DNA of 64,000 bases, taken from positions 64,001 through 128,000 of the IMG/VR virus record IMGVR_UViG_3300030108_004965. One strand, written 5' to 3'. Positions 16,040-36,511 of this stretch are shown one piece after another. The first letter of the stretch is position 1. Every line of letters starts with the position of its first letter. The notes under the pieces are model-generated. The model was not told where the DNA came from. It ran no database searches and saw only the letters and a program-made list of their open reading frames with translations. Source of the DNA: a virus. The translations under genes were made by a program, and so were the position numbers.

Positions 16040-16123
16040 ATAGTTATGTAAAGTTTTTTGTCCTCTCATAGTTATGTAAAGTTTTTACATTTAGAGACAT
16101 TTGTATAGTTATGTAAAGTTTTT
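16040..16123. repeat. iteron-like direct repeat cluster 1 (3 x ATAGTTATGTAAAGTTTTT)
   Basis: Identical 19-mers at 16040, 16068 and 16105 in non-coding DNA. Confidence 0.9.
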
Positions 16124-16631
16124 TGATCTCCTGCAAAACTTCGTTTTGTTACGCATGTAACGCTCGCACCTCACATATGACACACGTAACACGTAACACA
16201 CGCATTTTTTCACAAATGAAAAAACCTAATAAAATCGGGGGGTTAATGGTGGTTGCTCCTAAAGGATGTTACTCGGTTACGCTCGGTTTCTCCGTAACAC
16301 ATTGGCGGTTACGATTGTTGCACACTACTTACAGATGGAGTTTCGTCTATAATGCCCGTAGAGCCGAAGGCTTCGTGCTTATTACACCCATAATACCAGC
16401 ACACAGGCACACACAACACAGAAGCCGCACAATCACGCATAGAGGCTTCTAAAAGCCCTCTCCTATACGACACCCACACGCAACGCAGGAAACGTTCACA
16501 AACAGCATTTACAGCCTTCTATGAGCATCTGTGAACACATACAAGTTCGCTCCTGTGGGAGTGAAGTGGGCTTAGGGATGGGGGGTAGTAGAGTAGTAGA
16601 GTAGACCGGACGGGGATAGGGTAGGGGAGTA

Positions 16632-16829
16632 CTAGTGTAGAAGGCCGCAGGACAGGGGCTTTAATCGTTTACTCTCAGTCCAGAAAGGTTTTATTTTATG
16701 TAAGAATGAAACATAAACATCAAGACCGTAATCATAAAAGGGTTCTTCTGGTACAGTCCTGAGAACCAAGACCATTCTATGGCCGTCCAGCATAAGCAAG
16801 TCACCTGCTGTTATGTCATTCCAGTTCAT
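16632..16829 (-). CDS. KOW/SH3-like mini-protein (divergent GDL family)
   Basis: ITAGDLLMLDG...VLVLR...WTESKRLKPL. Confidence 0.6.
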   Translation of the reverse strand: MNWNDITAGDLLMLDGHRMVLVLRTVPEEPFYDYGLDVYVSFLHKIKPFWTESKRLKPLSCGLLH

Positions 16830-17010
16830 CTAACACCTCGTAGTATATAAGGAATGACGACCAGTTTGTTGTGTGGACATTATCATAACTACCGAACATT
16901 CTAACACGTAAGTGTTCTACTGTGATATCATTCGTTTCATTCTTTCCTACAACTTCAGCATGTCCATAGTTTCCTTTACTATCTCTCACCAATAACTTTT
17001 TATTTTTCAT
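16816..17010 (-). CDS. hypothetical protein (64 aa)
   Basis: Start MKNKKLL after GGAGG; ATGA overlap with upstream gene. Confidence 0.65.
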   Translation of the reverse strand: MKNKKLLVRDSKGNYGHAEVVGKNETNDITVEHLRVRMFGSYDNVHTTNWSSFLIYYEVLDELE

Positions 17011-17186
17011 GTGTCCTCCGATGTTTTCACTTTGATTAACCATTTATTTGAGTGGTTGCTTGTTACGCCATTTGCCCATTGTACAGCACTTGCGCCCGAA
17101 TGAGATACAGAACCCTCAACAACTCTTATCACGATACCTAGACAGTCTTTGCTTCCGCTGTATCGCACTAAATCTCCTACCTTCAT
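17007..17186 (-). CDS. KOW/SH3-like mini-protein (GDLV family, 59 aa)
   Basis: Manual ORF MKVGDLVRYSGSKDCLGIVIRV...VQWANG. Confidence 0.75.
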   Translation of the reverse strand: MKVGDLVRYSGSKDCLGIVIRVVEGSVSHSGASAVQWANGVTSNHSNKWLIKVKTSEDT

Positions 17187-17371
17187 AATGCCTCCAAATA
17201 ATCTTTGTGTACTCGCCTTGTCTCACCATCGCTCCATGTTACATACCATCCAAGATCCCATTCTCTAACCAGAACACCGACCTGCTCTCGATAGTCAACA
17301 TTGTCCATCTGCTCGTATTTCCTTCCAACGCACCATACCATCGTCCATTTAACTAAATCTCCTTTTTTCAT
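17183..17371 (-). CDS. KOW/SH3-like mini-protein (GDLV family)
   Basis: MKKGDLVKW...VGVLV...VTWSDG...YLEAL. Confidence 0.75.
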   Translation of the reverse strand: MKKGDLVKWTMVWCVGRKYEQMDNVDYREQVGVLVREWDLGWYVTWSDGETRRVHKDYLEAL

Positions 17372-17378
17372 TTTGTCC

Positions 17379-17552
17379 TCACGGGTTTGAGCATGCTATC
17401 AGTTCCATATCTTCATAGGAGCAAAGAACCGTTGTGTTGTCGAACAACTGGACAACAGCATACATTTCGCTTTCTGTGTCCTCCCAGTGGAGATCAATGA
17501 TGATCCCCATCTGGTCGATTATCTTGTCCTTTACCAAGTCTCCAATCTTCAT
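17379..17552 (-). CDS. KOW/SH3-like mini-protein (GDLV family, 57 aa)
   Basis: Manual ORF MKIGDLVKDKIIDQMGIIIDL...DMELIACSNP. Confidence 0.7.
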   Translation of the reverse strand: MKIGDLVKDKIIDQMGIIIDLHWEDTESEMYAVVQLFDNTTVLCSYEDMELIACSNP

Positions 17553-17713
17553 TCTATCTTCTCCAGTTCATCGCTTGCCCACACACACGGCACAGGATAG
17601 GCACAGCCAGTTAACAATGAGCGCACAACGTAGAGCGCAGGTCTAATCTCGATGACTACCGCCAGTTCACCGAACTCTTTATCAAGCACCAAGTCTCCAA
17701 CATTAAACATCAT
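17549..17713 (-). CDS. KOW/SH3-like mini-protein (GDLV family, 54 aa)
   Basis: Manual ORF MMFNVGDLVLDKEFGELAVVIEI...DELEKIE. Confidence 0.7.
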   Translation of the reverse strand: MMFNVGDLVLDKEFGELAVVIEIRPALYVVRSLLTGCAYPVPCVWASDELEKIE

Positions 17714-17937
17714 CACTTCCAAGTAGGCTGAAGAGTTTCAGTGCAGAAGGTCAGGTCTTTGTGAGTAATCCACTTGTCGATACCATCGAACAGTTCGAGA
17801 TCCCAAGTTCGCAACTTGACTTCTTTGCCTTTGGTGTCGGTAGCATCGACATAACTGTACCCTTGCGATATAACTATGAAGAGTTCTCCGGTGCGTTCGT
17901 GGCGAACCAAGTCGCCTGATTTAAGTCGTAATCTCAT
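17713..17937 (-). CDS. KOW/SH3-like mini-protein (GDLV family)
   Basis: LKSGDLVRHERTGELFIVIS. Confidence 0.7.
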   Translation of the reverse strand: MRLRLKSGDLVRHERTGELFIVISQGYSYVDATDTKGKEVKLRTWDLELFDGIDKWITHKDLTFCTETLQPTWK

Positions 17938-18116
17938 TTTGCCTCCAAAGCGTAGATTATTTCGTCGATTGCTTCATCAAGTTCGAGAAGGTCATGTGCC
18001 TCGTCTTGATTGGTTGTTGTTGATGTTCGATGGATTATCCATCGCTGGATTTGTACCAGTCTTTCGTAGTCAGGATTTTCAGTGTTGTTAAGGTATTGCC
18101 AAATCTTGTCAATCAT
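17934..18116 (-). CDS. hypothetical protein (60 aa)
   Basis: Start MIDKIWQY after AAGGA RBS, downstream of promoter. Confidence 0.65.
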   Translation of the reverse strand: MIDKIWQYLNNTENPDYERLVQIQRWIIHRTSTTTNQDEAHDLLELDEAIDEIIYALEAK

Positions 18117-18173
18117 CTTAGTTCCTTTTGTTGGGGTTATACTATATTGTATCACGTTGAGGGGAAAAGTCAA

Positions 18174-18188
18174 GGACAGAAAATGTCC
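18174..18188. promoter_or_regulatory. palindromic operator GGACA-W5-TGTCC
   Basis: GGACAGAAAATGTCC abutting TTGACT-N16-TACAAT. Confidence 0.75.
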
Positions 18189-18190
18189 GT

Positions 18191-18406
18191 TTATGCGATT
18201 TTTGTTATGCCTCGGAGTAGACCGAGTTTTGTAAAGACCTTTTCTTTTCCCTTGCCATAAACAGGGGATTTAATGACCTCAGTTGTGATGTAAGGCGCAC
18301 CATAACGGCTTGTATCGCAAGAAGTGCCCGTTACAATGAGAACCTCATTGCCTACGTTACATTCGTTAAGGAGAATGTCTCCTATTTTGATCTCGGTGAT
18401 GTTCAC
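18191..18406 (-). CDS. KOW/SH3-like mini-protein (divergent)
   Basis: IKIGDILLNEC...VLIVTG. Confidence 0.65.
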   Translation of the reverse strand: MNITEIKIGDILLNECNVGNEVLIVTGTSCDTSRYGAPYITTEVIKSPVYGKGKEKVFTKLGLLRGITKIA

Positions 18407-18465
18407 AGTGAACTCCTTTTGTTTGGGTTATATAAGTAATGTATCACGTTTTGAGAGTTTGTCGA

Positions 18466-18480
18466 GGACATAAAATGTCC
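18466..18480. promoter_or_regulatory. palindromic operator GGACA-W5-TGTCC
   Basis: GGACATAAAATGTCC abutting TCGACA / TGaTACATT promoter. Confidence 0.75.
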
Positions 18481-18482
18481 GT

Positions 18483-18761
18483 TTATGCAATCAGCCCAGC
18501 ATGTCGAGCCGCTTCGGGAAGCATAATACTTGATGGCTTGACTTCACGCTTGATAAGTCCAACGTGTTGAGAAGTTGTCATCGAGATGAAGTCACCGCCT
18601 GTCGCTGTGAAGTCATAGACAACGATACCGCTTGTTGTCCACTCGGCAATCTTGAGTTTGTAAGAATAAAGAGCAGTACCATCGGTAAAAAGGTTAAGGC
18701 CGAGAGCGTCGCGACCGTTGAGGAAAGAGTTGATTACTTGTTCGTTTGTTGGGATTGGCAT
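18483..18761 (-). CDS. hypothetical protein, paralog of 20207..20512
   Basis: TNEQVINSF...TDGTALYSYKLKIAE...VYDFTA...SMTTSQHVGLIK. Confidence 0.75.
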   Translation of the reverse strand: MPIPTNEQVINSFLNGRDALGLNLFTDGTALYSYKLKIAEWTTSGIVVYDFTATGGDFISMTTSQHVGLIKREVKPSSIMLPEAARHAGLIA

Positions 18762-18819
18762 TGTTGCCTCCATTGTTTGGGTTACATATATAATGTATCA
18801 CGTTTTAAGGTTTTGTCGA

Positions 18820-18834
18820 GGACATTTTATGTCC
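18820..18834. promoter_or_regulatory. palindromic operator GGACA-W5-TGTCC
   Basis: GGACATTTTATGTCC abutting TCGACA / TGaTACATT promoter. Confidence 0.75.
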
Positions 18835-18855
18835 GTTTTTGTTTAGTCTCGAACA

Positions 18856-19074
18856 TCAGGGAGTTACAGGGAACACTTCATGTGCATGAAGCCAATAGGC
18901 CGAACCAAGCGATTGAAAGTGAACCTTGACCAGAAGCGTTGCTTGGTTCTTGTAACCCTCGACAGCAACGACTATTCCGATAGAACAGGTTCGCCATTGT
19001 CGATAGACGTTCTCATGCACATGGATACGAAGTGTCTCGCTATCCACGGTCACAAGATCGCCCACCTCGAACAC
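18856..19074 (-). CDS. KOW/SH3-like mini-protein (GDLV family)
   Basis: MFEVGDLVTV...IGIVVAV...VKVHF...YWLHAHEV. Confidence 0.75.
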   Translation of the reverse strand: MFEVGDLVTVDSETLRIHVHENVYRQWRTCSIGIVVAVEGYKNQATLLVKVHFQSLGSAYWLHAHEVFPVTP

Positions 19075-19662
19075 CTATGAAACCAACTTTAAGGCGCATT
19101 GACCACGGACAACAGCGGCTACACCGTCCTTCTCAACCATTCTCATACCAGCCTTGCGGAAGTCCTCGATAAGTTGGGAATGTTCGGCAACATCATCACC
19201 AAAGCCATCACCAGCGATTTCATTGATATACTCTTGTATCCCCACAAGATCGAATACATAGATACTAACGTGTGGATTAGAAGTTGGATACTTCGTATAG
19301 GTGAAGTCAGGGAACTGACTACCATGTGCGCTATCCGCTTGATACACGATAAATCGGTTAAACTGTATCATTTCACGGGAAATGCGGTGCGCTTTGCTTG
19401 TATGGATCGAACCGCTTCTAACGTCTTTGGTAACGTATCTATAAGCATATTGGCGAAGCAAATCACCAGTAATCCCCTGAGCGATACGCTCAACAACCAC
19501 ACTGTCATGTTCCTCCATCAGTGCAGTCCAATAGATATAACCGCTGTCATCGCTTTCAAGTTTCAAGCCGTGAAGAGAATAGCCAAGAGCAGACATGAAG
19601 ATTGCTCTAAGAGCGTCGAGAGTTTGTAGTTGTGTATGACATTCAAAAGTAGGATTTAACAT
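19075..19662 (-). CDS. hypothetical protein (195 aa)
   Basis: Start MLNPTF after GGAG RBS. Confidence 0.7.
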   Translation of the reverse strand: MLNPTFECHTQLQTLDALRAIFMSALGYSLHGLKLESDDSGYIYWTALMEEHDSVVVERIAQGITGDLLRQYAYRYVTKDVRSGSIHTSKAHRISREMIQFNRFIVYQADSAHGSQFPDFTYTKYPTSNPHVSIYVFDLVGIQEYINEIAGDGFGDDVAEHSQLIEDFRKAGMRMVEKDGVAAVVRGQCALKLVS

Positions 19663-19741
19663 AAGAACTCCGAAGGAGAAGAGGTTATTGTAAATAGGGC
19701 TTAGAACCATTCCTTGCCCTCTTGTCTATATTGTATCTCGT

Positions 19742-20050
19742 TTAGAACAAACTGTCAAGTAAATCGGCTAAGTTTTTTGGATCTTTTCGGACATTTTTTG
19801 TCCGTTTCTTAAATCCTCCGTTGCGTCCTTGCTTGTAAAGTTCGTTGGCACGGGCTTCATCAATAAATTCTATTTCTTCTTTGAGATTGAAATGTTTTGT
19901 ACAAAAGAACCATTTTTTACCATGACCCATAGACTGAAAAGTGACCATCCACAAGTCATCATTCGGGTTCTTTCGGGGCTTTATCCAAAGAGCATAGCCA
20001 ACCCCATACACTTGATGTTCACAGTATTTATATTTATCATCATTCGACAT
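19742..20050 (-). CDS. hypothetical protein (102 aa)
   Basis: ORF with GAGG RBS. Confidence 0.7.
   Translation of the reverse strand: MSNDDKYKYCEHQVYGVGYALWIKPRKNPNDDLWMVTFQSMGHGKKWFFCTKHFNLKEEIEFIDEARANELYKQGRNGGFKKRTKNVRKDPKNLADLLDSLF
19789..19803. promoter_or_regulatory. palindromic operator GGACA-W5-TGTCC (inside ORF)
   Basis: CGGACATTTTTTGTCCG ~30 bp upstream of TTGACA at 19754-19759. Confidence 0.7.
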
Positions 20051-20065
20051 AATCGTAATCCTCAG

Positions 20066-20173
20066 TTAAAATGTGCAAGATGTTATGGTAGTGTGCATTG
20101 TAGTGAAAAATAACAGGAGTGTCGTAGTCATCGAAGAAATGAACATGCCAATAGTTATCAACTCTCTTGGCAT
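20066..20173 (-). CDS. small hydrophobic peptide (35 aa)
   Basis: Manual ORF MPRELITIGMFISSMTTTLLLFFTTMHTTITSCTF. Confidence 0.4.
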   Translation of the reverse strand: MPRELITIGMFISSMTTTLLLFFTTMHTTITSCTF

Positions 20174-20206
20174 GTCCGTATCCTCGATCAAAGTGACGAA
20201 CCAAAA

Positions 20207-20512
20207 TCATCGTCTGTTCTGCGGCAGAAGGCCGGAAGCCACCGCAGTCTCGACTAATACGACGTTTCGCCTTGGTACACGTTGCTTCACCATGCCAACA
20301 TGCTGTGATGTCGTTTGAGACTTGTAAGCGTTGCCACGGGCAGTGTAGTCGTATACTAGGGTAGTAGCCTTTCCATAATCATCTGGAATATGTTCGGCAA
20401 TCCGTAGGTTGTAAGAGAAGAGAGATTGACCATCTGTGGTCAATGCACCCCCATTTGCTGGTCGTTGGTTCATAAAAGCATTTACTACTTGTTCGTTAGT
20501 GTGTCTAGCCAT
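20207..20512 (-). CDS. hypothetical protein, paralog of 18483..18761
   Basis: TNEQVVNAF...TDGQSLFSYNLRIAE...VYDYTA...SQTTSQHVGMVK. Confidence 0.75.
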   Translation of the reverse strand: MARHTNEQVVNAFMNQRPANGGALTTDGQSLFSYNLRIAEHIPDDYGKATTLVYDYTARGNAYKSQTTSQHVGMVKQRVPRRNVVLVETAVASGLLPQNRR

Positions 20513-20531
20513 TGTTACCTCCAATGGGTTT

Positions 20532-20575
20532 TGGGTTGTATATAATACCTATCGGGTTGGATAGGATTTGTCAAG
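20532..20575 (-). promoter_or_regulatory. class-B early promoter (TTGACA-N17-AACCCGATAGGT type)
   Basis: TTGACAaatcctatccAACCCGATAGGTATtatatacaacccaa. Confidence 0.7.
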
Positions 20576-20598
20576 AAAAAAGTTGAAAATAGTTCCAA

Positions 20599-20997
20599 TC
20601 ACCCCAGTTCTTCGCAAGCCAGATCAGCCTTTAATCTTCTGACCAGTGCGCCAGTCTTGCCCATGTCGGGGTGTGAGGTGATCAGATCGTAGGTAGGCAT
20701 GAGCCAGATTGGTTTGTGTTTTAGTTTATTAACGAACAGCAGGGCATTTTTGTAACTTGGAAATACCCCAACTTGCGCTCCAGAAAGCAGGTGAGTTACA
20801 ACATGCTTTTTGCTGTATCGTGTCCGTTCTTTTTGCTGTTTCTCTTTCCATTCTTTCACGCACCGATGAATGATAAAAGGATAAACATGTTCGGCTGGCA
20901 TTGTACAGGTCAGTTGATCAAAGTTGTATGTCATAATGTTAATTGTTTGTCTCGTAAGGCTCATAAACGCTCCTATAAGGCATTTGTGAAGGTTCAT
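20599..20997 (-). CDS. hypothetical protein (start uncertain)
   Basis: ORF track. Confidence 0.6.
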   Translation of the reverse strand: MNLHKCLIGAFMSLTRQTINIMTYNFDQLTCTMPAEHVYPFIIHRCVKEWKEKQQKERTRYSKKHVVTHLLSGAQVGVFPSYKNALLFVNKLKHKPIWLMPTYDLITSHPDMGKTGALVRRLKADLACEELG

Positions 20998-21024
20998 AGG
21001 GGTACAGGTAGGGTAGGAGGAGAG

Positions 21025-21042
21025 AAGCCCCTAAAGGGGCTT
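21025..21042 (-). terminator. hairpin overlapping the stop codon of the VWA gene
   Basis: AAGCCCC-TAAA-GGGGCTT, followed on the transcript by a C-rich tract rather than a U-tract. Confidence 0.45.
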
Positions 21043-22294
21043 ATTTGTCCACCGCAATGACACGCTCATTCGTTGTGAAGTATGGACGAGAAGCACACTC
21101 CGGAGTAGTCATCCACATACGCTGACACTTCGATGGTACGGGCTTAGGTGCTTCCATATCAGTTAGAATGATATGACCATCAAAGTTGCGCTCATTGACC
21201 CAACGGGTCGGAGCGTCGAAGCAAGTACCACCGCAAGAGACACGCTCGAAGGTTCGACGTTTCCCCTTCTTCCAGACATAGACTTCATCTTCAGCAACGA
21301 CTGTATCGAAGGGAACAACGGTAAACTCGGCATACTTGGCAAGTCCGTTAAGTTCTGCGAAGAAGATGGAAAGCATTTGATCTGAAACAGATCCCGACTG
21401 GTCGATAGAGATAGCAATCTTGGCTGTACGGTTGACCTTCTTTCCAGCATGAATGTAAGGGAAACGCTTGTTAATCCTACGGACTGTCGAGCGACGATTA
21501 GCCCGTTGGGAAGTCTTGACAAAGTATCGAAGCACAGACCGCCAGTTCACCTTCGGTGTAACCATATCTTGGATCTTCTTTCTCATACCTTGGGATACAG
21601 TACCCCAGCCACGACCGCCAGCATTGACTTCATCGGTTGCCTTGCGGATAACGTCTTTCAAGCGTTCCTCGGCCATAGCCTTAGTCTCTTGATCGACTTC
21701 TCCCCAACCGCTGTGGTCATCGAGGCTATCAGGCAAGCCGCCACCGCCTTTACCTTGCCCATCACCATCGGAAGGATCGCCAGAGCCAGAACCTTCGCCA
21801 TCTTGACCTTCGCCTTGACCTTCGCCTTCGCCATCTTTAGGCTTGAACTGCTCGTCATTCTGAAGTTTGGAGAAGTACCACTCAGCCGACATTTCCAGAG
21901 GATAGTCTTGAAACGGCTCTTGTGTCGGGATACAGCCACCTTCGGGAAGTTTACCAACCAAGAAGGAGTTGATCGCAAGGTCTGTGGCTACATTCCACAT
22001 TTTGGACATACCCTCCGGTGGTAGGCGACCAGTAACATGTTCTAAGATAAGATGATAAAACTCATGCATAAGAACCCCAAGCCGCTGTTCTTCTGGAAGA
22101 TCAGCAAAGAAGTTAGGATTGTACATCATGACGAACTGAGCAGTCTCTTTGTCAATCATTACACCAGCGGTAGGAATAGCGGTGCTTTCCACTTTGTGAA
22201 TACGACGAGACAAGCCAGCGAAGAAGGGTTCGGATTGTAGCAACTTGAAAGTGTGTTTGTTCAAGTCAAACTTGGGAGTTGTTTTGTCAGTCAT
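21041..22294 (-). CDS. DUF2201-type metallopeptidase + VWA-like domain protein
   Basis: GVLMHEFYH (HExxH); G/E/D linker; IAISIDQSGSV (MIDAS); GGTCF; IILTDME. Confidence 0.85.
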   Translation of the reverse strand: MTDKTTPKFDLNKHTFKLLQSEPFFAGLSRRIHKVESTAIPTAGVMIDKETAQFVMMYNPNFFADLPEEQRLGVLMHEFYHLILEHVTGRLPPEGMSKMWNVATDLAINSFLVGKLPEGGCIPTQEPFQDYPLEMSAEWYFSKLQNDEQFKPKDGEGEGQGEGQDGEGSGSGDPSDGDGQGKGGGGLPDSLDDHSGWGEVDQETKAMAEERLKDVIRKATDEVNAGGRGWGTVSQGMRKKIQDMVTPKVNWRSVLRYFVKTSQRANRRSTVRRINKRFPYIHAGKKVNRTAKIAISIDQSGSVSDQMLSIFFAELNGLAKYAEFTVVPFDTVVAEDEVYVWKKGKRRTFERVSCGGTCFDAPTRWVNERNFDGHIILTDMEAPKPVPSKCQRMWMTTPECASRPYFTTNERVIAVDK

Positions 22295-22310
22295 AAGACC
22301 TCCAAGGTTT

Positions 22311-22354
22311 TGGGTTATGTAATATACTTATCGGGTTAGACAGGAGTTGTCAAG
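22311..22354 (-). promoter_or_regulatory. class-B early promoter
   Basis: TTGACAactcctgtctAACCCGATAAGTATattacataaccca. Confidence 0.7.
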
Positions 22355-22393
22355 AAAAAGGAGTAAAAAACCTTGACAACCCCCGTCACTTCG

Positions 22394-29494: not shown

Positions 29495-29717
29495 GTTGTC
29501 CTCCTTTGACAATCTTGAATGTTTCAGTTGAACCATAAAGGTCATGATCCCACATAGCGTCATCGTCATCTTCACTTAACCACTTAATGTAGATAAGATG
29601 GGCAAAGCCACCATTTTTGTGGTGCGCCTCGGTATGAGTTACCCACCCTATGTCATTAGCCTCTGGATGATTATTTTCCCAATGTTTATACAGTATCATG
29701 TCTCCAACTTCTATCAT
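29484..29717 (-). CDS. KOW/SH3-like mini-protein (GDLV family)
   Basis: MIEVGDMILY...IGWVTH...IKWL. Confidence 0.7.
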   Translation of the reverse strand: MIEVGDMILYKHWENNHPEANDIGWVTHTEAHHKNGGFAHLIYIKWLSEDDDDAMWDHDLYGSTETFKIVKGGQHER

Positions 29718-29774
29718 AATGTCCTCCAGTGTTGGGGTATAGTAGTAATGTATCATGTCCTCGAAATAAATCAA

Positions 29775-29789
29775 GGACATTTTTTGTCC
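29775..29789. promoter_or_regulatory. palindromic operator GGACA-W5-TGTCC
   Basis: GGACATTTTTTGTCC abutting TTGATT / TGaTACATT promoter. Confidence 0.75.
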
Positions 29790-29791
29790 GA

Positions 29792-30772: not shown

Positions 30773-30790
30773 TTCGACCTCCAAGTCGTT

Positions 30791-30833
30791 TGGGTTATAT
30801 AGAACACTTATCGGGTTCAGTTGGTTTTGTCAA
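30791..30833 (-). promoter_or_regulatory. class-B early promoter
   Basis: TTGACAaaaccaactgAACCCGATAAGTGTtctatataaccca. Confidence 0.7.
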
Positions 30834-31024
30834 ACATTTTCTTGATTTTTCTTTATAGCCTCGGTGATCTCGATAAAGTCATCTTTTTTTATTTTTGCAA
30901 GAGCCAGACTAACAATGGCTGGGTCTGTATCCATTCCTTCTATTATATCTTGCAGTTCCCATATGCCCGATTGCTGTAAGATGTGCAATGAGTTAACGGA
31001 GATTTCTAAATCAACTAGGTTCAT
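30830..31024 (-). CDS. hypothetical protein (64 aa)
   Basis: Start MNLVDLE after GGAGG. Confidence 0.65.
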   Translation of the reverse strand: MNLVDLEISVNSLHILQQSGIWELQDIIEGMDTDPAIVSLALAKIKKDDFIEITEAIKKNQENV

Positions 31025-31259
31025 TTTGTACCTCCTGTATGACTTCGATTTCATTGGACGAACAGCCGATATAGTCTCCGTTCTCCAATGCTACGTGCCA
31101 ACGACCCCAGTGTTCTTGTCCGTGTTCATCGACACCTTCATCGGCCATGACTATCCCGATCCTGTCGGAATAAACATAGCCCCTTTTATCTTTCCATTCT
31201 TTTACAATGACCAGTTCCCCGATCTGAATGGCTTTTTTGCTTCTGTTTATTTTTAACAT
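31011..31259 (-). CDS. KOW/SH3-like mini-protein (GDLV family)
   Basis: IQIGELVIV...IGIVMA...VALENG...EIEVI. Confidence 0.7.
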   Translation of the reverse strand: MLKINRSKKAIQIGELVIVKEWKDKRGYVYSDRIGIVMADEGVDEHGQEHWGRWHVALENGDYIGCSSNEIEVIQEVQNEPS

Positions 31260-31420
31260 AGTATCTCCAAATCTTCTTTGTCTACCCAATCATCTACCAA
31301 ATCTTCTTCACAGACCCAATAGCAAAGTATCATTCCATCCGCTAAATCTTCATGATCCACGATGATACCTATCCCCCAGTAGGGATAACGGGGGTTGTGG
31401 ACTAAATCTCCTATTTTCAT
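31253..31420 (-). CDS. KOW/SH3-like mini-protein (GDLV family)
   Basis: MKIGDLVHNP...IGIIVD...CYW...DLEILC*. Confidence 0.8.
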   Translation of the reverse strand: MKIGDLVHNPRYPYWGIGIIVDHEDLADGMILCYWVCEEDLVDDWVDKEDLEILC

Positions 31421-31617
31421 ATTACCTCCAAGTAGTAGCCATATTCGTGCGTAGGAGATGCGTTGTGTGCCCACAGCACCGCATACTCCTCATGTTCGTC
31501 CTCATACCCCCCTGCACCTCGGTAGGAGACTATCATCCCGATCCAATCGAACTCATTGCCAGATGGATCAGCGAAGCCCTTCTGGATCTTTACAAGGTCG
31601 CCTATCTCAAAGTTCAT
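31417..31617 (-). CDS. KOW/SH3-like mini-protein (GDLV family)
   Basis: FEIGDLVKI...IGMIVS...VLW...YLEVI*. Confidence 0.8.
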   Translation of the reverse strand: MNFEIGDLVKIQKGFADPSGNEFDWIGMIVSYRGAGGYEDEHEEYAVLWAHNASPTHEYGYYLEVI

Positions 31618-31894
31618 CCTTCACCTCCTTAACGTCCAGAAATGAGCCTATATAACCCACAGGACACCTATACATTATGACCCTCCAGCCCATGAACTGG
31701 GTAGGTAGACGGGTATGCCACGGGGATACCTCGGTATCCTCTGTCTCTGCGTATACGTCTAGTGTAGTACCGCAGTCATTCGATGCCTTGCGGATGTAGA
31801 AGGCACTATCCGTACACTCTATCACTAAGGATTTTATCTCTTCTTTTGCCTCGTCAAACGGGGCTTTCTCTTTATTCCAATGTATGTTAGCCAT
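31607..31894 (-). CDS. hypothetical protein (95 aa)
   Basis: RBS supplied by the MEVING junction of the upstream gene. Confidence 0.7.
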   Translation of the reverse strand: MANIHWNKEKAPFDEAKEEIKSLVIECTDSAFYIRKASNDCGTTLDVYAETEDTEVSPWHTRLPTQFMGWRVIMYRCPVGYIGSFLDVKEVKDEL

Positions 31895-32036
31895 TTATCA
31901 CCTCCATTTCGCTTTCTATGTGATAGCCTTGTGTGCCATCAGTCCACTGAACATAAAACTCTCCGTCGTATACCACTTCTGTGATAATGCCGATGTCTCC
32001 ATCTTCGTTGTATCTTACTAAATCACCTACTTCCAT
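31887..32036 (-). CDS. KOW/SH3-like mini-protein (GDLV family, 49 aa)
   Basis: Manual ORF MEVGDLVRYNEDGDIGIITEV...VQWTDG...EMEVING*. Confidence 0.8.
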   Translation of the reverse strand: MEVGDLVRYNEDGDIGIITEVVYDGEFYVQWTDGTQGYHIESEMEVING

Positions 32037-32202
32037 TTATCACCTCCAAGTTTTCTTTTCGTTCATAACTGCTTTTTTGATTGCTCCACTGGATCAGGCA
32101 CTGTTCCACTATCCCGAATGGGGTATATCCAAGCCGTTTCCTAACGACAATACCAAACAACCACTTTGTGTGCTTGGGGCTTACTAAATCACCTACTTCC
32201 AT
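32023..32202 (-). CDS. KOW/SH3-like mini-protein (GDLV family, 59 aa)
   Basis: Manual ORF MEVGDLVSPKH...FGIVV...IQWSN...NLEVINGSR*. Confidence 0.8.
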   Translation of the reverse strand: MEVGDLVSPKHTKWLFGIVVRKRLGYTPFGIVEQCLIQWSNQKSSYERKENLEVINGSR

Positions 32203-32350
32203 TTATCACCTCCATATCGCTTGGGTTCATAAATCCCAAATCTCCACAAGACCATTGTACCCACCAGCCACCTGTGTTGTGCTTGACAATAATACCTGTC
32301 CTGTTGCACCCATACTTTGACTTCATCTTTACTAAATCACCTACTTTCAT
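32189..32350 (-). CDS. KOW/SH3-like mini-protein (GDLV family)
   Basis: MKVGDLVKM...TGIIVK...VQWSCG...DMEVINGSR*. Confidence 0.8.
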   Translation of the reverse strand: MKVGDLVKMKSKYGCNRTGIIVKHNTGGWWVQWSCGDLGFMNPSDMEVINGSR

Positions 32351-32526
32351 ATTACCTCCAACTGAGTTGGGAAATACATTCCGTACTTTCCTGTGTTGAG
32401 CCACAAAACTCTCGTTCTTTGAAACTGGCCAGTTGGTGACATTGATCCTTCTATGACCATGCCAAACCAGTTTGATTTGTCGTGAGAGGTTTTGTGCCTA
32501 AACTTTACCAAATCACCTACTTTCAT
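32347..32526 (-). CDS. KOW/SH3-like mini-protein (GDLV family, 59 aa)
   Basis: Manual ORF MKVGDLVKF...FGMVIE...VLWLN...QLEVI*. Confidence 0.8.
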   Translation of the reverse strand: MKVGDLVKFRHKTSHDKSNWFGMVIEGSMSPTGQFQRTRVLWLNTGKYGMYFPTQLEVI

Positions 32527-32689
32527 TTATCACCTCCACATGATAACTGCCGCCAGTTGTAATGCGGCCATCACCCCACTGAATACGGTAAATCCAATGA
32601 ACAGGGTTTACTTGTTTCTTCTTGCTTATTACAATCCCAACACCTTGTTTCGGGTTGGTTGTTAGTTTTACCAAATCACCTACTTCCAT
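32513..32689 (-). CDS. KOW/SH3-like mini-protein (GDLV family, 58 aa)
   Basis: Manual ORF MEVGDLVKL...VGIVIS...IQWGDG...HVEVINESR*. Confidence 0.8.
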   Translation of the reverse strand: MEVGDLVKLTTNPKQGVGIVISKKKQVNPVHWIYRIQWGDGRITTGGSYHVEVINESR

Positions 32690-32828
32690 TTATCACCTCC
32701 AGTGATGTTAAAGGGCATAGGTAGATTTCATTATTGAACATAACACAGCAGTCACCATTTCTTCTTATCTCTACAAGAACACCGATGGTTGGGTCATTCG
32801 CAAACAAAACTAAATCACCTATATTCAT
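32676..32828 (-). CDS. KOW/SH3-like mini-protein (GDLV family)
   Basis: MNIGDLVLF...IGVLVE...SLEVINGSR*. Confidence 0.8.
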   Translation of the reverse strand: MNIGDLVLFANDPTIGVLVEIRRNGDCCVMFNNEIYLCPLTSLEVINGSR

Positions 32829-32829
32829 A

Positions 32830-33201
32830 TCAATACCCCACTTGTATTTCACGCTTGACATGGATCTCACTTTCCCACCAGTCGCCACGATACTCTATGT
32901 CTTCGAGTTCTTCGCCAATGCGGAGGAAGCGAAACTTTTCTCTTTTTTCAACATCTTCCTCCATAGCGTCCATAAACTTCTCAAACATTTGAATGTCTTC
33001 AAACTCATTGAAGGTGGTATACCATTTTATACTATTGCACGTAAAGAGCCAATGCCCCTCGCATTGATAGTCTTTATCGAACTCAAAGTCAGACATATCT
33101 CCAAAGATTTGAGCCATGAGTTCTTCTGTTTTGAGAAAGGTGAGGAAGTCACCTTGTAAGTCTTTGTGTATTGCTATTGCAACGTCTGATCTGTATCCCA
33201 T
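32830..33201 (-). CDS. hypothetical protein (123 aa)
   Basis: MGYRSDVAIAI...FRFLRIGEELED; GGAGG RBS. Confidence 0.75.
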   Translation of the reverse strand: MGYRSDVAIAIHKDLQGDFLTFLKTEELMAQIFGDMSDFEFDKDYQCEGHWLFTCNSIKWYTTFNEFEDIQMFEKFMDAMEEDVEKREKFRFLRIGEELEDIEYRGDWWESEIHVKREIQVGY

Positions 33202-33260
33202 TGGACACCTCCTGTTTGTTGGTTATACTATAAGTGTATCACGACCAGCCAAAAAAGCAA

Positions 33261-33275
33261 GGTCATTTTTTGTCC
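33261..33275. promoter_or_regulatory. palindromic operator (GGTCA-W5-TGTCC)
   Basis: GGTCATTTTTTGTCC abutting TTGCTT / TGaTACACT promoter. Confidence 0.7.
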
Positions 33276-33448
33276 GTTTTTATTATTCTTAATTCGACCT
33301 CGGCAATCTCGGAGATAACTCCATCGTTCCACCAAACTCTATACCATCTGTTCCCTGTGTACATGTGCGAAGAGATTACAATGCCGATCTTCTTTGTGTT
33401 GCTCCAAGTCCAGATAAACTCGACAAGTTCACCGTTCTGGATCATCAT
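33263..33448 (-). CDS. KOW/SH3-like mini-protein (GDLV family)
   Basis: IQNGELVEF...IGIVIS...VWWNDG...ELRII. Confidence 0.75.
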   Translation of the reverse strand: MMIQNGELVEFIWTWSNTKKIGIVISSHMYTGNRWYRVWWNDGVISEIAEVELRIIKTDKK

Positions 33449-33626
33449 TTAAGGCCATTAGTTCACAGTCTATAAGGTCAATCCCTTCAGTTCCATCTGC
33501 CCACAAAACATCGTAAGTTGTCTGATTGAATGTATTTAACTCTGGGCTTGTTATATCCGAAACGATCCCGATCATTCCGTGGTCTGCGTCGTATTGTATC
33601 CACATAACTAAATCACCTATTTTCAT
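33429..33626 (-). CDS. KOW/SH3-like mini-protein (GDLV family)
   Basis: MKIGDLVMW...IGIVSD...VLWADG. Confidence 0.8.
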   Translation of the reverse strand: MKIGDLVMWIQYDADHGMIGIVSDITSPELNTFNQTTYDVLWADGTEGIDLIDCELMALNDDPER

Positions 33627-33783
33627 TTATCACCTCCAATCCACTGGTGTACATTCCAGACCTGCTTCCGCACTGCCAGAACACCACGGCATATTCCTGA
33701 GCATGCACATGAAAACACAATATGTTCTCTACTATTCCGTACTGTTCGTGTTCTTTGTGTTTTACTAAATCACCTACTTTCAT
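33613..33783 (-). CDS. KOW/SH3-like mini-protein (GDLV family, 56 aa)
   Basis: Manual ORF MKVGDLVKH...YGIVEN...VFW...GLEVINENR*. Confidence 0.8.
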   Translation of the reverse strand: MKVGDLVKHKEHEQYGIVENILCFHVHAQEYAVVFWQCGSRSGMYTSGLEVINENR

Positions 33784-33934
33784 TTATCACCTCCAACCAT
33801 TGGATCTCGATCCAGTAGGTTTTACCACTAGACCAATAAACATTCGCATATCCTTTTGTAACCTCGACAATCATTCCGGTGTCTCCGGCAGAAGGATAAT
33901 CTTCACCTACTATAACTAAATCACCCCTCTCCAT
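33770..33934 (-). CDS. KOW/SH3-like mini-protein (GDLV family, 54 aa)
   Basis: Manual ORF MERGDLVIV...TGMIVE...VYWSSG...WLEVINESR*. Confidence 0.8.
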   Translation of the reverse strand: MERGDLVIVGEDYPSAGDTGMIVEVTKGYANVYWSSGKTYWIEIQWLEVINESR

Positions 33935-34121
33935 CGAACACCTCGTCGATGCTATCTATCTTCTTGATGAAATGCCCAGCAATGTCAGGGTGCTTTACTT
34001 TGAGCCACATGCCCACAATGTCGCACTCCCACATGTCTACAACCTCATAGTACACGGGTTCATAGTTTTGATACACTCCGTACCTTTTTGCTGTTACCTT
34101 ATCGCCTATTTTTATTCGCAT
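33921..34121 (-). CDS. KOW/SH3-like mini-protein (divergent)
   Basis: MRIKIGDKV... Confidence 0.7.
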   Translation of the reverse strand: MRIKIGDKVTAKRYGVYQNYEPVYYEVVDMWECDIVGMWLKVKHPDIAGHFIKKIDSIDEVFDGEG

Positions 34122-34297
34122 AATACCTCCATGCCCCAACTGTCATACGTCCAGCCTCTACCAGATCGCCCGTTTGAGAAAAGAACAACAAAGTAAGATT
34201 TACCCTCCATCCTATATTCTTCCGTCGCAATACCCAACGCACCAACCAATTGTTTGTTGTCGCTTTTTGTGACCATCACTAAACTACCTACTTTCAT
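34112..34297 (-). CDS. KOW/SH3-like mini-protein (GDLV family)
   Basis: MKVGSLVMV...LGIATE...VLFSNG...GMEVLCE*. Confidence 0.8.
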   Translation of the reverse strand: MKVGSLVMVTKSDNKQLVGALGIATEEYRMEGKSYFVVLFSNGRSGRGWTYDSWGMEVLCE

Positions 34298-34445
34298 TTA
34301 TCACCTCCATTCTTCTGGCTGGTGTCCAAGAATGATCCCCATCGTACCAAAGCACCTTGATGGTGAACTCATTCTGGCCAATCTCTGTTACTATTCCCAT
34401 TTGTTCACTATGGAATACATGCTTTACTAAATCACCTACTTTCAT
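34284..34445 (-). CDS. KOW/SH3-like mini-protein (GDLV family, 53 aa)
   Basis: Manual ORF MKVGDLVKH...MGIVTE...VLWYDG...RMEVINESR*. Confidence 0.8.
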   Translation of the reverse strand: MKVGDLVKHVFHSEQMGIVTEIGQNEFTIKVLWYDGDHSWTPARRMEVINESR

Positions 34446-34624
34446 GATGCCTCCTGTTTGTCGTCTAAGGGTCTGTAAAAGACCCTCCAGTTAATGTCGC
34501 CAATCTGGCAATACCTGTCTTTGTCTAGGTTGATACAGCCGATATATCCACCAACCAATGATGGTTCTGTGACTACGTATCTGTCGCCTAGATCCTTGTG
34601 TATGTAAATGTCGCCTACTTTCAT
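34442..34624 (-). CDS. KOW/SH3-like mini-protein (divergent)
   Basis: MKVGDIYIHKD... Confidence 0.7.
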   Translation of the reverse strand: MKVGDIYIHKDLGDRYVVTEPSLVGGYIGCINLDKDRYCQIGDINWRVFYRPLDDKQEAS

Positions 34625-34782
34625 ATTACCTCCAACAGATCCTTGTGGATACGGAATGTTAGGTTCGGTTTCCTCGATCTGTTCTTCTTATGAATAAAAA
34701 CAGCACAGTGTGTCGAAGATGCACTGACAACGATACCTATTTCTTTTGTGCTTTTGGTCATTACCAAATCTCCTGATTTCAT
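34621..34782 (-). CDS. KOW/SH3-like mini-protein (GDLV family, 53 aa)
   Basis: Manual ORF MKSGDLVMTKSTKEIGIVVS...LLEVI*. Confidence 0.75.
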   Translation of the reverse strand: MKSGDLVMTKSTKEIGIVVSASSTHCAVFIHKKNRSRKPNLTFRIHKDLLEVI

Positions 34783-35120
34783 GATGCTTTCCCCTTGTGA
34801 TTAGAGTTGCCGATGTTCTCTCCAACCTTGGAGAAAGCCACGTTATTAAGACCGCCACGACGTTGGTTATTCCAGCCTCTGTTGGCTTCCCAAGTCTTGC
34901 CGTAAATCTCTGCGTCATCCTCGCTGTCGAAGCGTAGGATCTGCATAGCCGCCATCTTACCATCACCGGTAGTGAAGGCACGAACTCTGCTCTTGATTTC
35001 AAGACCAAGTTCCTCGACGCAATCGGGACACTCGTTGATCTTGCCACCTGCCCGTCGCTTTTTAGGGCATTGCAAACTAAAGTCATCACCGCAGTGAATA
35101 CATTCTCTTATGTGTCTCAT
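34779..35120 (-). CDS. zinc-ribbon protein
   Basis: ECIHCG...ECPDC; GGAGG RBS. Confidence 0.7.
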   Translation of the reverse strand: MRHIRECIHCGDDFSLQCPKKRRAGGKINECPDCVEELGLEIKSRVRAFTTGDGKMAAMQILRFDSEDDAEIYGKTWEANRGWNNQRRGGLNNVAFSKVGENIGNSNHKGKAS

Positions 35121-35176
35121 TTGACACCTCCGTTTTGTTTGGGTTATACTATATCGTATCACGTTGTTAAAATAAA

Positions 35177-35401
35177 TCAAGGACAAATTATGTCCGAAAA
35201 TGCTTTGTAGAGTGCTGGTGTCCAGTCGCTCGGCTTTATCTCATAGTGAAACATTGATTTCCAAGTCTCACTACAAGTGAAGTCTCCATCGTTCCAAGCC
35301 ACTTGGAACATCTCACGATCATCATCATAATCGACAACAATCCCAATGAAAACGTCATCTGTGTCGCTTCTTACGAAGTCTCCGATCTTGAAGTTATTCA
35401 T
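35177..35401 (-). CDS. KOW/SH3-like mini-protein (GDLV family)
   Basis: FKIGDFVR...IGIVVD...VAWNDG. Confidence 0.75.
   Translation of the reverse strand: MNNFKIGDFVRSDTDDVFIGIVVDYDDDREMFQVAWNDGDFTCSETWKSMFHYEIKPSDWTPALYKAFSDIICP
35181..35195. promoter_or_regulatory. palindromic operator GGACA-W5-TGTCC
   Basis: GGACAAATTATGTCC abutting TTGATT / TGaTACGAT promoter. Confidence 0.75.
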
Positions 35402-35603
35402 AGATACCCCCAAGATGCCTAATTTCATCCGTGTAGTGTGGCTGGATGCGTTCATCATAAACTCCATTCAGCCACTCAACAAGGACTTGTCCATAGCCTT
35501 CTTCTGTTATCACCATGCCTATCGGCAATGTAACATCATTTTCCGATGGATCTGGTGTCCAATGTGCGTCATAAACTAAATCACCAATCTTGAACTCACT
35601 CAT
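35394..35603 (-). CDS. KOW/SH3-like mini-protein (GDLV family)
   Basis: FKIGDLVY...IGMVIT...VEWLNG. Confidence 0.75.
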   Translation of the reverse strand: MSEFKIGDLVYDAHWTPDPSENDVTLPIGMVITEEGYGQVLVEWLNGVYDERIQPHYTDEIRHLGGIYE

Positions 35604-35853
35604 AATCGCCTCCATCACTGTCGATACCTCCGAAAATCTTCGGATTTCTTTCTTGAACCTGCTTCATACATCGCACTGCTTGCTCATACTGCTCTCTGTA
35701 TTCGTCATTAGGTTCTATCTGATACATAAGTTGCAACTCATGCACACGTTCTTTTATTGCAGTTAGAATAAGAATGTCAACCTGCTCATGTATTGTTGGT
35801 TCTCTTCCTAAGATGGTTTCTAACTCTTGGTTCATTTTTTTAATCGCACTCAT
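35596..35853 (-). CDS. hypothetical protein (85 aa)
   Basis: ORF track, helical. Confidence 0.65.
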   Translation of the reverse strand: MSAIKKMNQELETILGREPTIHEQVDILILTAIKERVHELQLMYQIEPNDEYREQYEQAVRCMKQVQERNPKIFGGIDSDGGDYE

Positions 35854-36085
35854 GGCTATCTCCTTTGATTTCCTTGCAATACTTGATAAGACCTTTGTCC
35901 ATCAAGACAGTTTCGTTCTTGATTATATCGTGAAAGCGGTAGTTGTTTATCACAATACCATCGCTCCTTTTTATTGTTTCTTCTCCTATAAATAGAAGCA
36001 TATCCCAGCCACGATCCCATGAGTTGTTATCATAGTTCCATTGGTTCGTTCGCCAACGGCATTTGTATAATAATCCTGCTGTCAT
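35840..36085 (-). CDS. hypothetical protein (81 aa)
   Basis: First gene of the module; GGAGG RBS and promoter. Confidence 0.7.
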   Translation of the reverse strand: MTAGLLYKCRWRTNQWNYDNNSWDRGWDMLLFIGEETIKRSDGIVINNYRFHDIIKNETVLMDKGLIKYCKEIKGDSHECD

Positions 36086-36163
36086 TTTGTCCTCCTGACT
36101 TTGGGTTATACTATATTGTATCCCGTTGTGGTTCAGTTGTCAAATCTTTTCTGTTTCTTTTCC

Positions 36164-36178
36164 GGACATTTTTTGACC
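36164..36178. promoter_or_regulatory. palindromic operator (GGACA-W5-TGACC)
   Basis: CGGACATTTTTTGACCG ~20 bp upstream of TTGACA. Confidence 0.7.
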
Positions 36179-36227
36179 GCCTCACATGTGATAATAAAAG
36201 GATCGCATACATGCGGAATGAGATTGC

Positions 36228-36511
36228 ATAGTTATGTTAAATAAATTTTTTTTTGGGGAAATACATAACATAGTTATGTAAAGTTTTTAGATGATAAAAG
36301 TTGTCAAAAAGTTGTCAAATCTTTGTTGCAAAAGGGTCAAAAACGTGTTATATTAGATAATACGGAGGCTTTTGTGTCAAGTGTTTTTTTACAAGGCTCA
36401 CATAGTTATGTTAAGTTTTTATGAGTTATGTAAAGTTTTTTAGACAAAAGCCATAGTTATGTAAAGTTTTTTGGATTTGTTTTACAGATCCCATAGTTAT
36501 GTAAAGTTTTT
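36228..36511. repeat. iteron-like direct repeat cluster 2 (6 x ATAGTTATGTAAAGTTTTT, some degenerate)
   Basis: Copies at 36228 (partial), 36270, 36402, 36422, 36453 and 36493; same orientation as cluster 1. Confidence 0.9.

Follow-up and report, generated by a model that had tools for sequence, protein, structure and literature searches.

In the genome of an abundant, uncultured, marine T4-like phage, a 19-bp direct repeat, ATAGTTATGTAAAGTTTTT, is gathered in two clusters about 20 kb apart, and the question raised by this locus is what function these arrays fulfill. Replication origins and the control of the early region are essentially uncharted for uncultured marine myovirus-like phages. An initial annotation of the window, i.e., the whole 64,000-nucleotide stretch of DNA that was analyzed, had counted three copies in one cluster and six in the other, all intergenic and in the same orientation, and had proposed dual origins, packaging or injection signals, or recombination sites. 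The two arrays are as follows:

16040-16123, plus strand: cluster 1 (small array), with exact copies of the 19-mer at 16040, 16068 and 16105.
36228-36511, plus strand: cluster 2 (large array), with copies at 36270, 36402, 36422, 36453 and 36493 and a degenerate half-copy at 36228.

All three copies counted in cluster 1 are exact. Five of the six counted in cluster 2 stand, three being exact (36270, 36453 and 36493) and two carrying one (36402) or two (36422) mismatches, while the sixth, at 36228, is a half-copy which matches 14 of 19 bases, contiguously over the first 11 only. Every copy does lie on the plus strand, and the reported cluster 2 spacings of 42, 132, 20, 31 and 40 bp are correct (those of cluster 1 are 28 and 37). 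Both clusters were also rightly placed between genes, cluster 1 within intergenic region 15881-16631 and cluster 2 within 36086-36510, save that the copy at 36493 overlaps by one base the stop codon of the minus-strand gene 36511-36828. Allowing up to three mismatches, eight matches were found against 0.04 expected by chance, a number reached in none of 100 shuffles. A genome-wide search, which had been suggested as a check, retrieved no further copy with two or fewer mismatches outside both clusters in the whole 191,696 bp, and the 12-nt core is likewise confined to the copies of clusters 1 and 2. The arrays occupy the longest non-coding, multi-repeat regions of this tightly packed genome, and their duplex stability falls in the lowest 0.3-3% genome-wide, yet does not represent the genome's extremes.

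Comparison with relatives indicates that the 19-mer is under strong purifying selection. The word is unchanged in five related IMG/VR phages (G001, G003, G004, G005 and G006) and in at least 120 marine metagenome contigs, and it stays invariant where neighboring proteins are only 34-44% identical, the adjoining protease being down to 35-44%. When cluster 2 was aligned with that of G001, motif columns were 95% identical versus 44% for flanking and spacer columns. Thirteen core positions are invariant and the information in the position weight matrix spans about 22 bp; the full site, c-ATAGTTATGTAAAGTWTTTT-tg, is asymmetric and measures about 21-22 bp, with the 19-mer as its core. Of 411 copies, only 2 deviate from the strand used by the others on their contig, a strand antisense to the genes. 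The helical phasing that had been claimed for cluster 2 is not evident from the window's spacings alone but is present among relatives, where spacings peak at 28-29, 40-41, 50 and 60 bp and show a periodicity of 10.5-11 bp (resultant length 0.45 versus 0.24 at the null 99.9th percentile; 191 spacings from 126 distinct arrays, which are phylogenetically non-independent). Collectively, these data support that the repeats behave like iterons, i.e., as asymmetric sites of about 21-22 bp which share one orientation and appear helically phased and selected. The copies were also considered as sigma-70 or phage-sigma promoters. This possibility was rejected, as no -35-like signal was found upstream of the copies and the position weight matrix holds no information 5' of the motif, and the copies all point away from the genes, some of them at a distance of only 20 bp from each other.

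The conserved unit does not include the TCACATRTGA palindrome which had been reported near each cluster. Both decamers exist, but TCACATATGA at 16171 is not a true palindrome, unlike TCACATGTGA at 36182. The decamer is altered to TCGCATGTGG in the nearest relative, and one lies within 160 bp of the array in only 4 of 117 arrays of relatives.

Between and beside the arrays lie two further regions:

16124-16631, no strand assigned: about 500 bp of non-coding DNA adjacent to cluster 1, with GTTAC/GTAAC dyads, direct repeats and blocks conserved in relatives.
16632-36085, minus strand: early-gene block between the arrays, made of small genes, including GDLV-type minigenes, behind many stem-loop plus early-promoter cassettes.

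The non-coding stretch 16124-16631 matched no Rfam family. The early block, whose GC3 is about 0.45 versus 0.31-0.35 elsewhere, is syntenic in G001 and G003 and is kept in all complete relatives, and no contig without it was found. The arrays themselves are syntenic: the large one separates the first early promoter from the last gene upstream, and the small ones are found towards the opposite end of the block, next to long non-coding DNA rich in repeats and between homologs of 14884/15350 and of 16816/17007. Arrays are thus found at both borders, as the initial annotation had it, but a simple bracketing by two clusters does not describe the relatives, since in G003 and many contigs three to four small arrays follow one another, each with an early promoter downstream. 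The promoters associated with the arrays in the window are the following:

15915-15942, minus strand: leftward early promoter about 100 bp from cluster 1 (TTGACA-16-TACAAT with TG).
36115-36143, minus strand: P_left, the first early promoter of the block (TTGACA-17-TACAAT), preceded by a stem-loop at 36159-36179.
36291-36318, minus strand: leftward promoter-like site (TTGACA-16-TATCAT), whose -35 is one of two TTGTCAA direct repeats (36301-36307 and 36312-36318).
36326-36354, plus strand: P_right, an antisense sigma-70-type promoter inside the large array (TTGCAA-17-TATATT with upstream TG).
36358-36401, plus strand: region downstream of P_right, predicted to be transcribed, with a U7 run at 36384-36390.

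The segment at about 36098-36205, P_left included, is nearly unchanged in G001, and TGTCAAG repeats adjoin the arrays in relatives too. An equivalent of P_right was found in 24 of 28 large arrays of relatives (the best with a 12/12 consensus match plus TG) and in 4 of 81 arrays having two or three copies. In many lineages a copy of the 19-mer ends 11-13 bp upstream of the P_right -35, the nearest copy in the window's phage being 37 bp from it. In most relatives a hairpin and a U-run lie downstream of P_right and would end its RNA after about 40 nt; the stem sequences vary between lineages while hairpin and U-run are retained. In the window's phage this hairpin is weak (-6.5 kcal/mol, z -0.4).

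We propose, with a probability of roughly 40%, that the arrays are iterons at which a sequence-specific protein assembles origin or replication-control complexes, on the model of T4 oriE or SPP1 oriL/oriR. The motif, with its selection, orientation, phasing and synteny, and the nested promoter are observations; protein binding at the arrays and the role in replication are what we infer. The site of about 21-22 bp would be bound by a sequence-specific DNA-binding protein, either phage- or host-encoded, and the head-to-tail copies, on roughly one helix face, would allow its cooperative assembly into a nucleoprotein complex of higher order, in the manner of initiators bound to their iterons. The early region is bordered upstream by the large array, which is built round a divergent pair of host-type early promoters; one of them, P_right, is a strong antisense promoter that in most lineages would make only a hairpin-terminated RNA of about 40 nt. 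It may thereby represent an element of the T4 oriE kind, iterons being combined with an early promoter supplying transcriptional activation or a primer, whereas the small arrays at the other border may be partner or control sites, comparable to SPP1 oriR, P1 incA or P4 crr. The oriE-like pairing of iterons with a host-type early promoter is indeed found here in a phage with T4-type replication genes, the genome encoding gp32-like, UvsX/RecA, DnaB-like helicase, 5'-3' exonuclease (RNase H-like) and DnaE-type polymerase homologs. The immuto-related group is cosmopolitan, uncultured and marine; its replication genes are T4-like, and its polymerases are of the DnaE or a divergent PolA type.

The replication role is weakened by several observations. 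No gene of the genome matched the initiator families Rep_3, lambda-O or SPP1-gp38-type at E<=1; neither GC skew nor GC3 skew, which the initial annotation had suggested inspecting, shows a switch or inflection at the arrays, although skew is uninformative as to where replication starts; and no AT-rich unwinding element is shared by the lineages, the AT-rich stretch 36228-36262 not being kept in G001. The initial interpretation is partly supported, in that the repeats are iteron-like; the most plausible class of explanation is still an origin or some other signal bound by protein. Regarding candidate binders, HU/IHF and HTH_3 family members are absent from the genome, and the proteins flanking the arrays contain no Pfam DNA-binding domain. 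A more specific version, in which a new type of iteron-binding protein would run the arrays and the micro-transcription unit as the replication origin and control system of the marine immuto-related phage group, array pairing looping the 20-kb block into a switchable or insulated domain, is rather unlikely.

A close rival, which we consider possible but doubtful, is that the arrays are operators or insulators of early transcription, through which an early or middle protein of the phage, or else a factor of the host, would activate or shut off P_left and P_right, or would block read-through from the upstream operon into the early block, possibly via array-array looping. Such a function would agree with the presence of a strong leftward early promoter 27-125 bp to the left of the array, i.e., downstream of it, in 96 of 122 arrays of relatives. 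The copy ending 11-13 bp upstream of the P_right -35 in many lineages also places its AAAGTTTTTT half in the register of an UP element, and asymmetric operators of 17-19 bp do exist (P1 C1). As the serial small arrays of G003 and many contigs each stand upstream of an early promoter, transcriptional control fits them at least as well as replication. Still, the distance from array to P_left varies over the same 27-125 bp with a stem-loop in between, so that array and supposed target promoter are not in fixed register. The block also contains more than 15 other early promoters without a 19-mer copy, most small arrays lack P_right, and no candidate regulator was found.

The arrays might also be terminase (pac) sites or border a long terminal repeat with the early genes, of the T5 or SPO1 type. 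In favor of this, the block resembles a host-takeover region that would enter the cell first; direct repeats are often recognized by terminase small subunits, and contig ends fall within 60 bp of an array in slight excess (15 observed versus 7.4 expected). A precedent is provided by cyanophage S-PM2, whose ORFan block adjoins a zone where elevated read depth was taken to indicate terminal redundancy (PMC4503421). This explanation is nevertheless improbable, as TerL belongs to the gp17 type of T4 (46% identity to that of Flavobacterium phage immuto, 32% to cyanophage gp17), a type associated with headful packaging of permuted genomes, with which a fixed terminal repeat or the injection signal proposed earlier fits poorly. 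Three complete genomes are circular, differently broken maps, and contig word depth in two samples (X1 and X2), a weak measure since it is contig-derived, is equal in block and right flank (about 11-14 versus 12, and 7-8 versus 6-7), without the twofold step expected of a terminal repeat or the coverage feature anticipated in the initial annotation. It is even less probable that the copies act as RNA, those downstream of P_right forming a decoy or sponge for a translational repressor. On the plus strand, GUUAUGUAA is identical over 9 nt to the 3' part of aaAAUUGUUAUGUAA, the SELEX consensus (high-affinity ligand) of T4 RegA (PMC3014915), the genes of the phage for replication, recombination and packaging are T4-like, and P_right could transcribe three to four copies in the window's phage, where the terminator is weak. 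In most lineages, however, hairpin and U-run would halt P_right before the copies, the small arrays have no plus-strand promoter, and no copy lies at a translation start. RegA translational operators were specifically rejected: no PF01818 homolog was found in the genome even at E<=10, the copies are intergenic and antisense to all genes, and only the 9-nt identity to the SELEX ligand holds. An excision role is unlikely, and it is highly improbable that the arrays are recombination sites through which the 20-kb block would be excised, lost or amplified, site-specifically or by homologous recombination. Direct-orientation repeats do occur at both borders of a variable, accessory-looking block, and promoter-early stem-loops (PeSLs) are a precedent for repeats able to mediate deletions in T4-type phages (PMC4122927). 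Yet none of at least 120 related contigs joins the outer flanks of clusters 2 and 1, and no joined flanks or circular junction emerged from these contigs or from four runs, although contigs would miss rare forms. The predicted junction between 16.1 and 36.3 kb is therefore absent from the related contigs, depth is equal inside and outside the block, and the looping out or amplification first envisaged finds no counterpart. The joints seen are only promoter-cassette joints or co-occurring strain variants, contigs of two independent samples pass through cluster 2 or stop there without foreign junctions, all complete relatives retain the block, and a repeated, phased unit of 19-22 bp that is invariant across deep divergence is not what a crossover site requires.

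Under the preferred reading as iterons of an origin or replication-control system, the arrays would offer a way to test iteron-type complexes in T4-like replication, where the role of the T4 oriE iterons has been undefined for decades; they could equally serve to study the shut-off of host-takeover genes. In phages that are deeply diverged and found worldwide, a few syntenic positions are marked by one unvarying, information-rich site of about 22 bp, and the architecture is reproducible, combining a divergent early promoter, a micro-transcript and phased copies. The 19-mer may be used as a handle for fishing out its binding protein, and this single short pattern allows the phage group and the borders of its early region to be recognized in metagenomes.

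Several known systems share part of this architecture. The P1 C1 operators and the Cox/Apl-type arrays are non-palindromic sites of 17-19 bp or phased direct repeats at a few phage regulatory regions, a likeness to the present arrays; they belong to temperate switches with known repressors, whereas no lysogeny module or repressor was seen here and HTH_3 is absent. The block itself, with repeated stem-loop plus sigma-70 early-promoter cassettes flanking small variable ORFs, matches what is described for PeSLs (PMC4122927). The 19-mer arrays differ from these in being separate, outside the cassettes, upstream of the stem-loop and at the borders only. Two distant sets of one direct repeat served by one initiator are known from P4 (ori/crr) and P1 (incC/incA). 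Likewise, SPP1 has two distant sets of the same direct repeats per replicon, oriL and oriR, both bound by one initiator, one set initiating and the other stalling or controlling replication (PMC6316719). SPP1, P4 and P1 encode a recognizable initiator, often near or around the repeats, and possess an AT-rich unwinding element, unlike the present phage, in which no Rep_3, lambda-O or gp38-type gene and no conserved unwinding element were found. T4-type phages, for their part, are not known to need an origin-binding protein, and T4 oriE combines iterons, which have no proven role or binder, with dependence on an early promoter (PMC3016281). What is shared with oriE is that a T4-type genome bears clustered, evenly spaced direct repeats, syntenic in relatives and tied to a host-type early promoter (PMC3016281). 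The repeats show no sequence similarity to the 19-mer, and where T4 oriE has one cluster of 12-nt repeats, the phages described here carry a 21-22 bp site whose two to four arrays border the early region; an antisense promoter is nested there and, in most lineages, would make a micro-transcript.

A 19-bp direct repeat forms a small array (cluster 1) and a large array (cluster 2) separated by 20.2 kb, both in intergenic DNA as the initial annotation had described:

16040, 16068, 16105, 36270, 36453 and 36493: exact copies of ATAGTTATGTAAAGTTTTT
36402 (one mismatch) and 36422 (two mismatches): imperfect copies of ATAGTTATGTAAAGTTTTT

The three copies claimed for the small array are all exact. 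Six had been claimed for the large array, of which five are good copies and the sixth, at 36228, is only a half-copy; the stop codon of the gene 36511-36828 (minus strand) directly adjoins the last copy. A scan of the whole 191,696-bp genome, a check the annotation had suggested, revealed no further copy with two mismatches or fewer, and 0.04 matches to ATAGTTATGTAAAGTTTTT are expected by chance. The TCACATRTGA motif that had been noticed near each cluster is changed in a related phage, G001, and just 4 of 117 arrays have it nearby. Searches of both cluster regions against public phage records (blastn) returned no match, nor did Rfam at 15800-16700, even at E≤1.

The repeat is shared with several related IMG/VR phages. 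G001 (187 kb; arrays of 3 and 6 copies) and G006 (7 copies) were found via neighbouring proteins, so that their discovery is independent of the motif; scanning for the pattern brought in the complete genome of G003 (184 kb), as well as G004 and G005. A two-copy pattern is present in at least 120 marine metagenome contigs, and all sequencing runs listed as containing the sequence are marine metagenomes, with no RNA run among them. The 19-bp word is unchanged in genomes whose neighbouring protease shares 35-44% identity (G003 and G005) and in contigs where this value drops to 34%. When cluster 2 is aligned between the window's phage and G001, identity reaches 95% in motif columns vs 44% in surrounding columns. 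The consensus from 380 distinct copies, c-ATAGTTATGTAAAGTWTTTT-tg, has 13 invariant positions, a figure inflated by the choice of contigs by their core, and the flanks beyond it contain no conserved position. Copies on one contig share a strand, with only 2 exceptions among 411, and they are antisense to genes wherever genes are recognisable. Their spacings peak at 28-29, 40-41, 50 and 60 bp, with a periodicity of 10.5-11 bp far exceeding the uniform null. Matches in G007/L034 and single-copy IMG/VR matches were rejected as chance, and Lachnospiraceae and Acinetobacter MAG contigs with the 13-nt core as different elements. In the Lachnospiraceae contig (L278, 100-150), the core AGTTATGTAAA makes up each arm of a perfect 26-bp palindrome. 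This palindrome is repeated twice at a distance of 31 bp, upstream of an MFS transporter gene/operon and a 107-aa ORF, and looks like an unrelated operator sharing a half-site; the Acinetobacter contig carries a 10-bp tandem repeat.

Collectively, the array features point to a putative sequence-specific DNA-binding protein that would assemble head-to-tail on the arrays. This reading is suggested by the extreme conservation of an asymmetric site of ~22 bp and by the occurrence of 2-9 phased head-to-tail copies that are limited to a small number of syntenic non-coding stretches. The site is not a promoter, since it has no -35 partner and points away from genes, some copies being 20 bp apart; nor is it coding, because reading frames differ among copies. 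A DnaA box, an IHF site, a sigma-28 -35 element (TAAAGTTT) and a T4 late promoter, considered by eye, were rejected since the copies have no conserved flank, the second halves or partner elements being missing. A genome-wide search for a binder found no Rep_3, lambda-O, gp38-type, HU/IHF, HTH_3 or RegA family member. Likewise, Pfam and PHROG scans of flanking and early-block proteins detected no DNA-binding domain, and the proteins neighbouring arrays showed no informative domain or fold. The commonest neighbour of small arrays is p128 (14884-15270, minus strand), whose AlphaFold2 model (13 homologues; mean pLDDT 75) has no Foldseek match in the PDB at E≤0.001. In the p128 family, a motif following the pattern xHNLASARAxxxGR / VANAQTARxYxKxGV is duplicated within the protein. 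A 198-aa neighbour (14038-14634) had no usable match in the ESM Atlas.

Almost all genes of the window lie on the minus strand. The phage carries genes for a DnaE-type polymerase, GroEL, ClpP, a gp32-like SSB, UvsX/RecA, a DnaB-like helicase, a 5'-3' exonuclease, a divergent PolA-like protein and a tmRNA (58675-59006, minus strand; Rfam RF00023, 92.8 bits; ARAGORN tag peptide ANNNLYFEEALAA), the last being the only Rfam match in the whole window. Its large terminase is of the T4 gp17 type, the top match among cultured phages being Flavobacterium phage immuto (46%), followed by Microcystis phage Mel-JY01 (43%). These traits are consistent with membership of the immuto-centred group of 155-190-kb phages (PMC11348598).

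The three complete genomes align collinearly; their maps are circular, each broken at another place. Every large array (≥4 copies) has the first early gene (homologue of 35840-36085) on one side and the end of the upstream operon (homologues of 36511, 37025 and 37242) on the other. Small arrays (2-3 copies) are flanked by homologues of 14884/15350 and of 16816/17007; the G003 lineage has 3-4 of them in series, 1.2-2.3 kb apart. The region between the arrays, the early block, contains small genes, many of GDLV type, behind repeated stem-loop-plus-sigma-70 promoter cassettes of two main types (repeat families D2/D3 and D6), which match the PeSLs described in T4-type phages (PMC4122927):

15300-36200, minus strand: at least 15 promoter cassettes, each a GGACAnnnnnTGTCC stem-loop and a sigma-70 early promoter, flanking small genes

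GC content is 43-47% in the early block (13000-36000) vs 35-40% in the rest of the genome, and GC3 is ~0.45 vs 0.31-0.35 elsewhere, the rise beginning near 13.8 kb, ~2 kb left of cluster 1. A 1483-aa ORF (9315-13766, minus strand), which adjoins the block and has no Pfam or PHROG match, is all but missing from G001 and G003 and is thus a lineage-specific insertion. The G001 contig starts and stops within the homologue of a MoxR/CobS-like AAA ATPase gene (22394-23458, minus strand), which indicates a circular map with the assembly broken inside the early block.

Promoters accompany most arrays. A strong leftward early promoter lies 27-125 bp left of the array in 96 of 122 cases, with a stem-loop between. 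A strong promoter that points rightward, antisense to every gene, lies within 24 of 28 large arrays but in only 4 of 81 small ones (2-3 copies). The window's copy of this rightward promoter, P_right, is as follows:

36326-36354, rightward: P_right, antisense promoter within the large array

In G005, P_right has a perfect 12/12 consensus with TG. One copy of the repeat ends 11-13 bp before the P_right -35 in many lineages, this gap being 25 bp in G001-like phages and 37 bp in the window's phage. In most lineages, a hairpin and U-run follow within ~10 nt, stem sequences varying with the structure kept, so that an RNA of ~40 nt is predicted; the hairpin is weak in the window's own phage. The non-coding DNA beside small arrays extends over 300-600 bp and contains repeats of other families, namely TGTCAAG direct repeats, GTTAC/GTAAC or GTTGC..GCAAC dyads and perfect hairpins. 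Large arrays of G003 and G005 contain a conserved ~60-nt stretch between copies (L124 1216-1413, plus strand, and the G005 equivalent), which varies mainly at every third base and is absent in the window's lineage. The stretch could be a small plus-strand ORF (MLSFLKQVGDRLELMG...) that reads through the copies in G003 and G005; this reading was set aside because a minus-strand frame would account for the changes just as well and other lineages lack the ORF.

What the arrays do can be weighed against these data. Recombination sites are the least probable function: the proposed looping-out of the block found no counterpart, as the outer flanks of the two clusters meet in none of the related contigs. 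Among Logan contigs of four runs compared with 26501-46500 (cluster 2 and part of the block), one from an independent sample spans 35747-36903 unchanged, and joints occur only between promoter cassettes or derive from co-occurring G001-like variants. Contig depth in the block vs right of it is ~11-14 vs ~12 in one sample (X1) and 7-8 vs 6-7 in another (X2), which is weak evidence because each contig gives one depth figure. Packaging signals, also a minor option, are improbable: contig ends fall within 60 bp of arrays slightly more often than by chance (15 vs 7.4), an excess explained by assemblies breaking at repeats, and the gp17-type terminase and circular maps argue against fixed genome ends. 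A role at the RNA level is hardly more plausible than recombination; it rests on GUUAUGUAA, which the T4 RegA SELEX ligand contains in identical form (PMC3014915), but the genome has no RegA and a terminator follows P_right.

A close rival to an origin role, if itself rather unlikely, is that the arrays control transcription from the boundary early promoters or insulate them. This would account for arrays lying recurrently upstream of early promoters, for the arrays in series in the G003 lineage and for the fixed register of one copy with P_right, the AAAGTTTTTT half of that copy being similar to an UP element; however, the distance to the first early promoter of the block (P_left) varies and many early promoters have no copies. 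We tentatively favour an origin or replication-control complex, with a probability of about 0.4, since the form of the arrays is classical for iterons and they sit in the genome's longest non-coding regions, which hold multiple repeats. The skew feature looked for at the arrays did not appear, neither GC skew nor GC3 skew switching there, and skews and duplex stability give no decisive origin signal. The lowest-stability (most AT-rich) 100 bp of the genome (G000:C1:138960-139060), outside the window, adjoin the divergent PolA-like gene (137573-138769) and represent another candidate origin region.

Iteron arrays are already a known kind of element. In the literature searched, for descriptions rather than for the word itself, the 19-mer, its placement at the borders of a PeSL-type early block, the antisense micro-transcription unit nested within the large array and the wide spread of the word in marine metagenomes appear undescribed. 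The replication reading is further favoured by two precedents. The large array resembles T4 oriE, in which iterons are likewise combined with a host-type early promoter (PMC3016281), and the two-array layout is reminiscent of SPP1 oriL/oriR, where one protein serves two distant repeat sets (PMC6316719).
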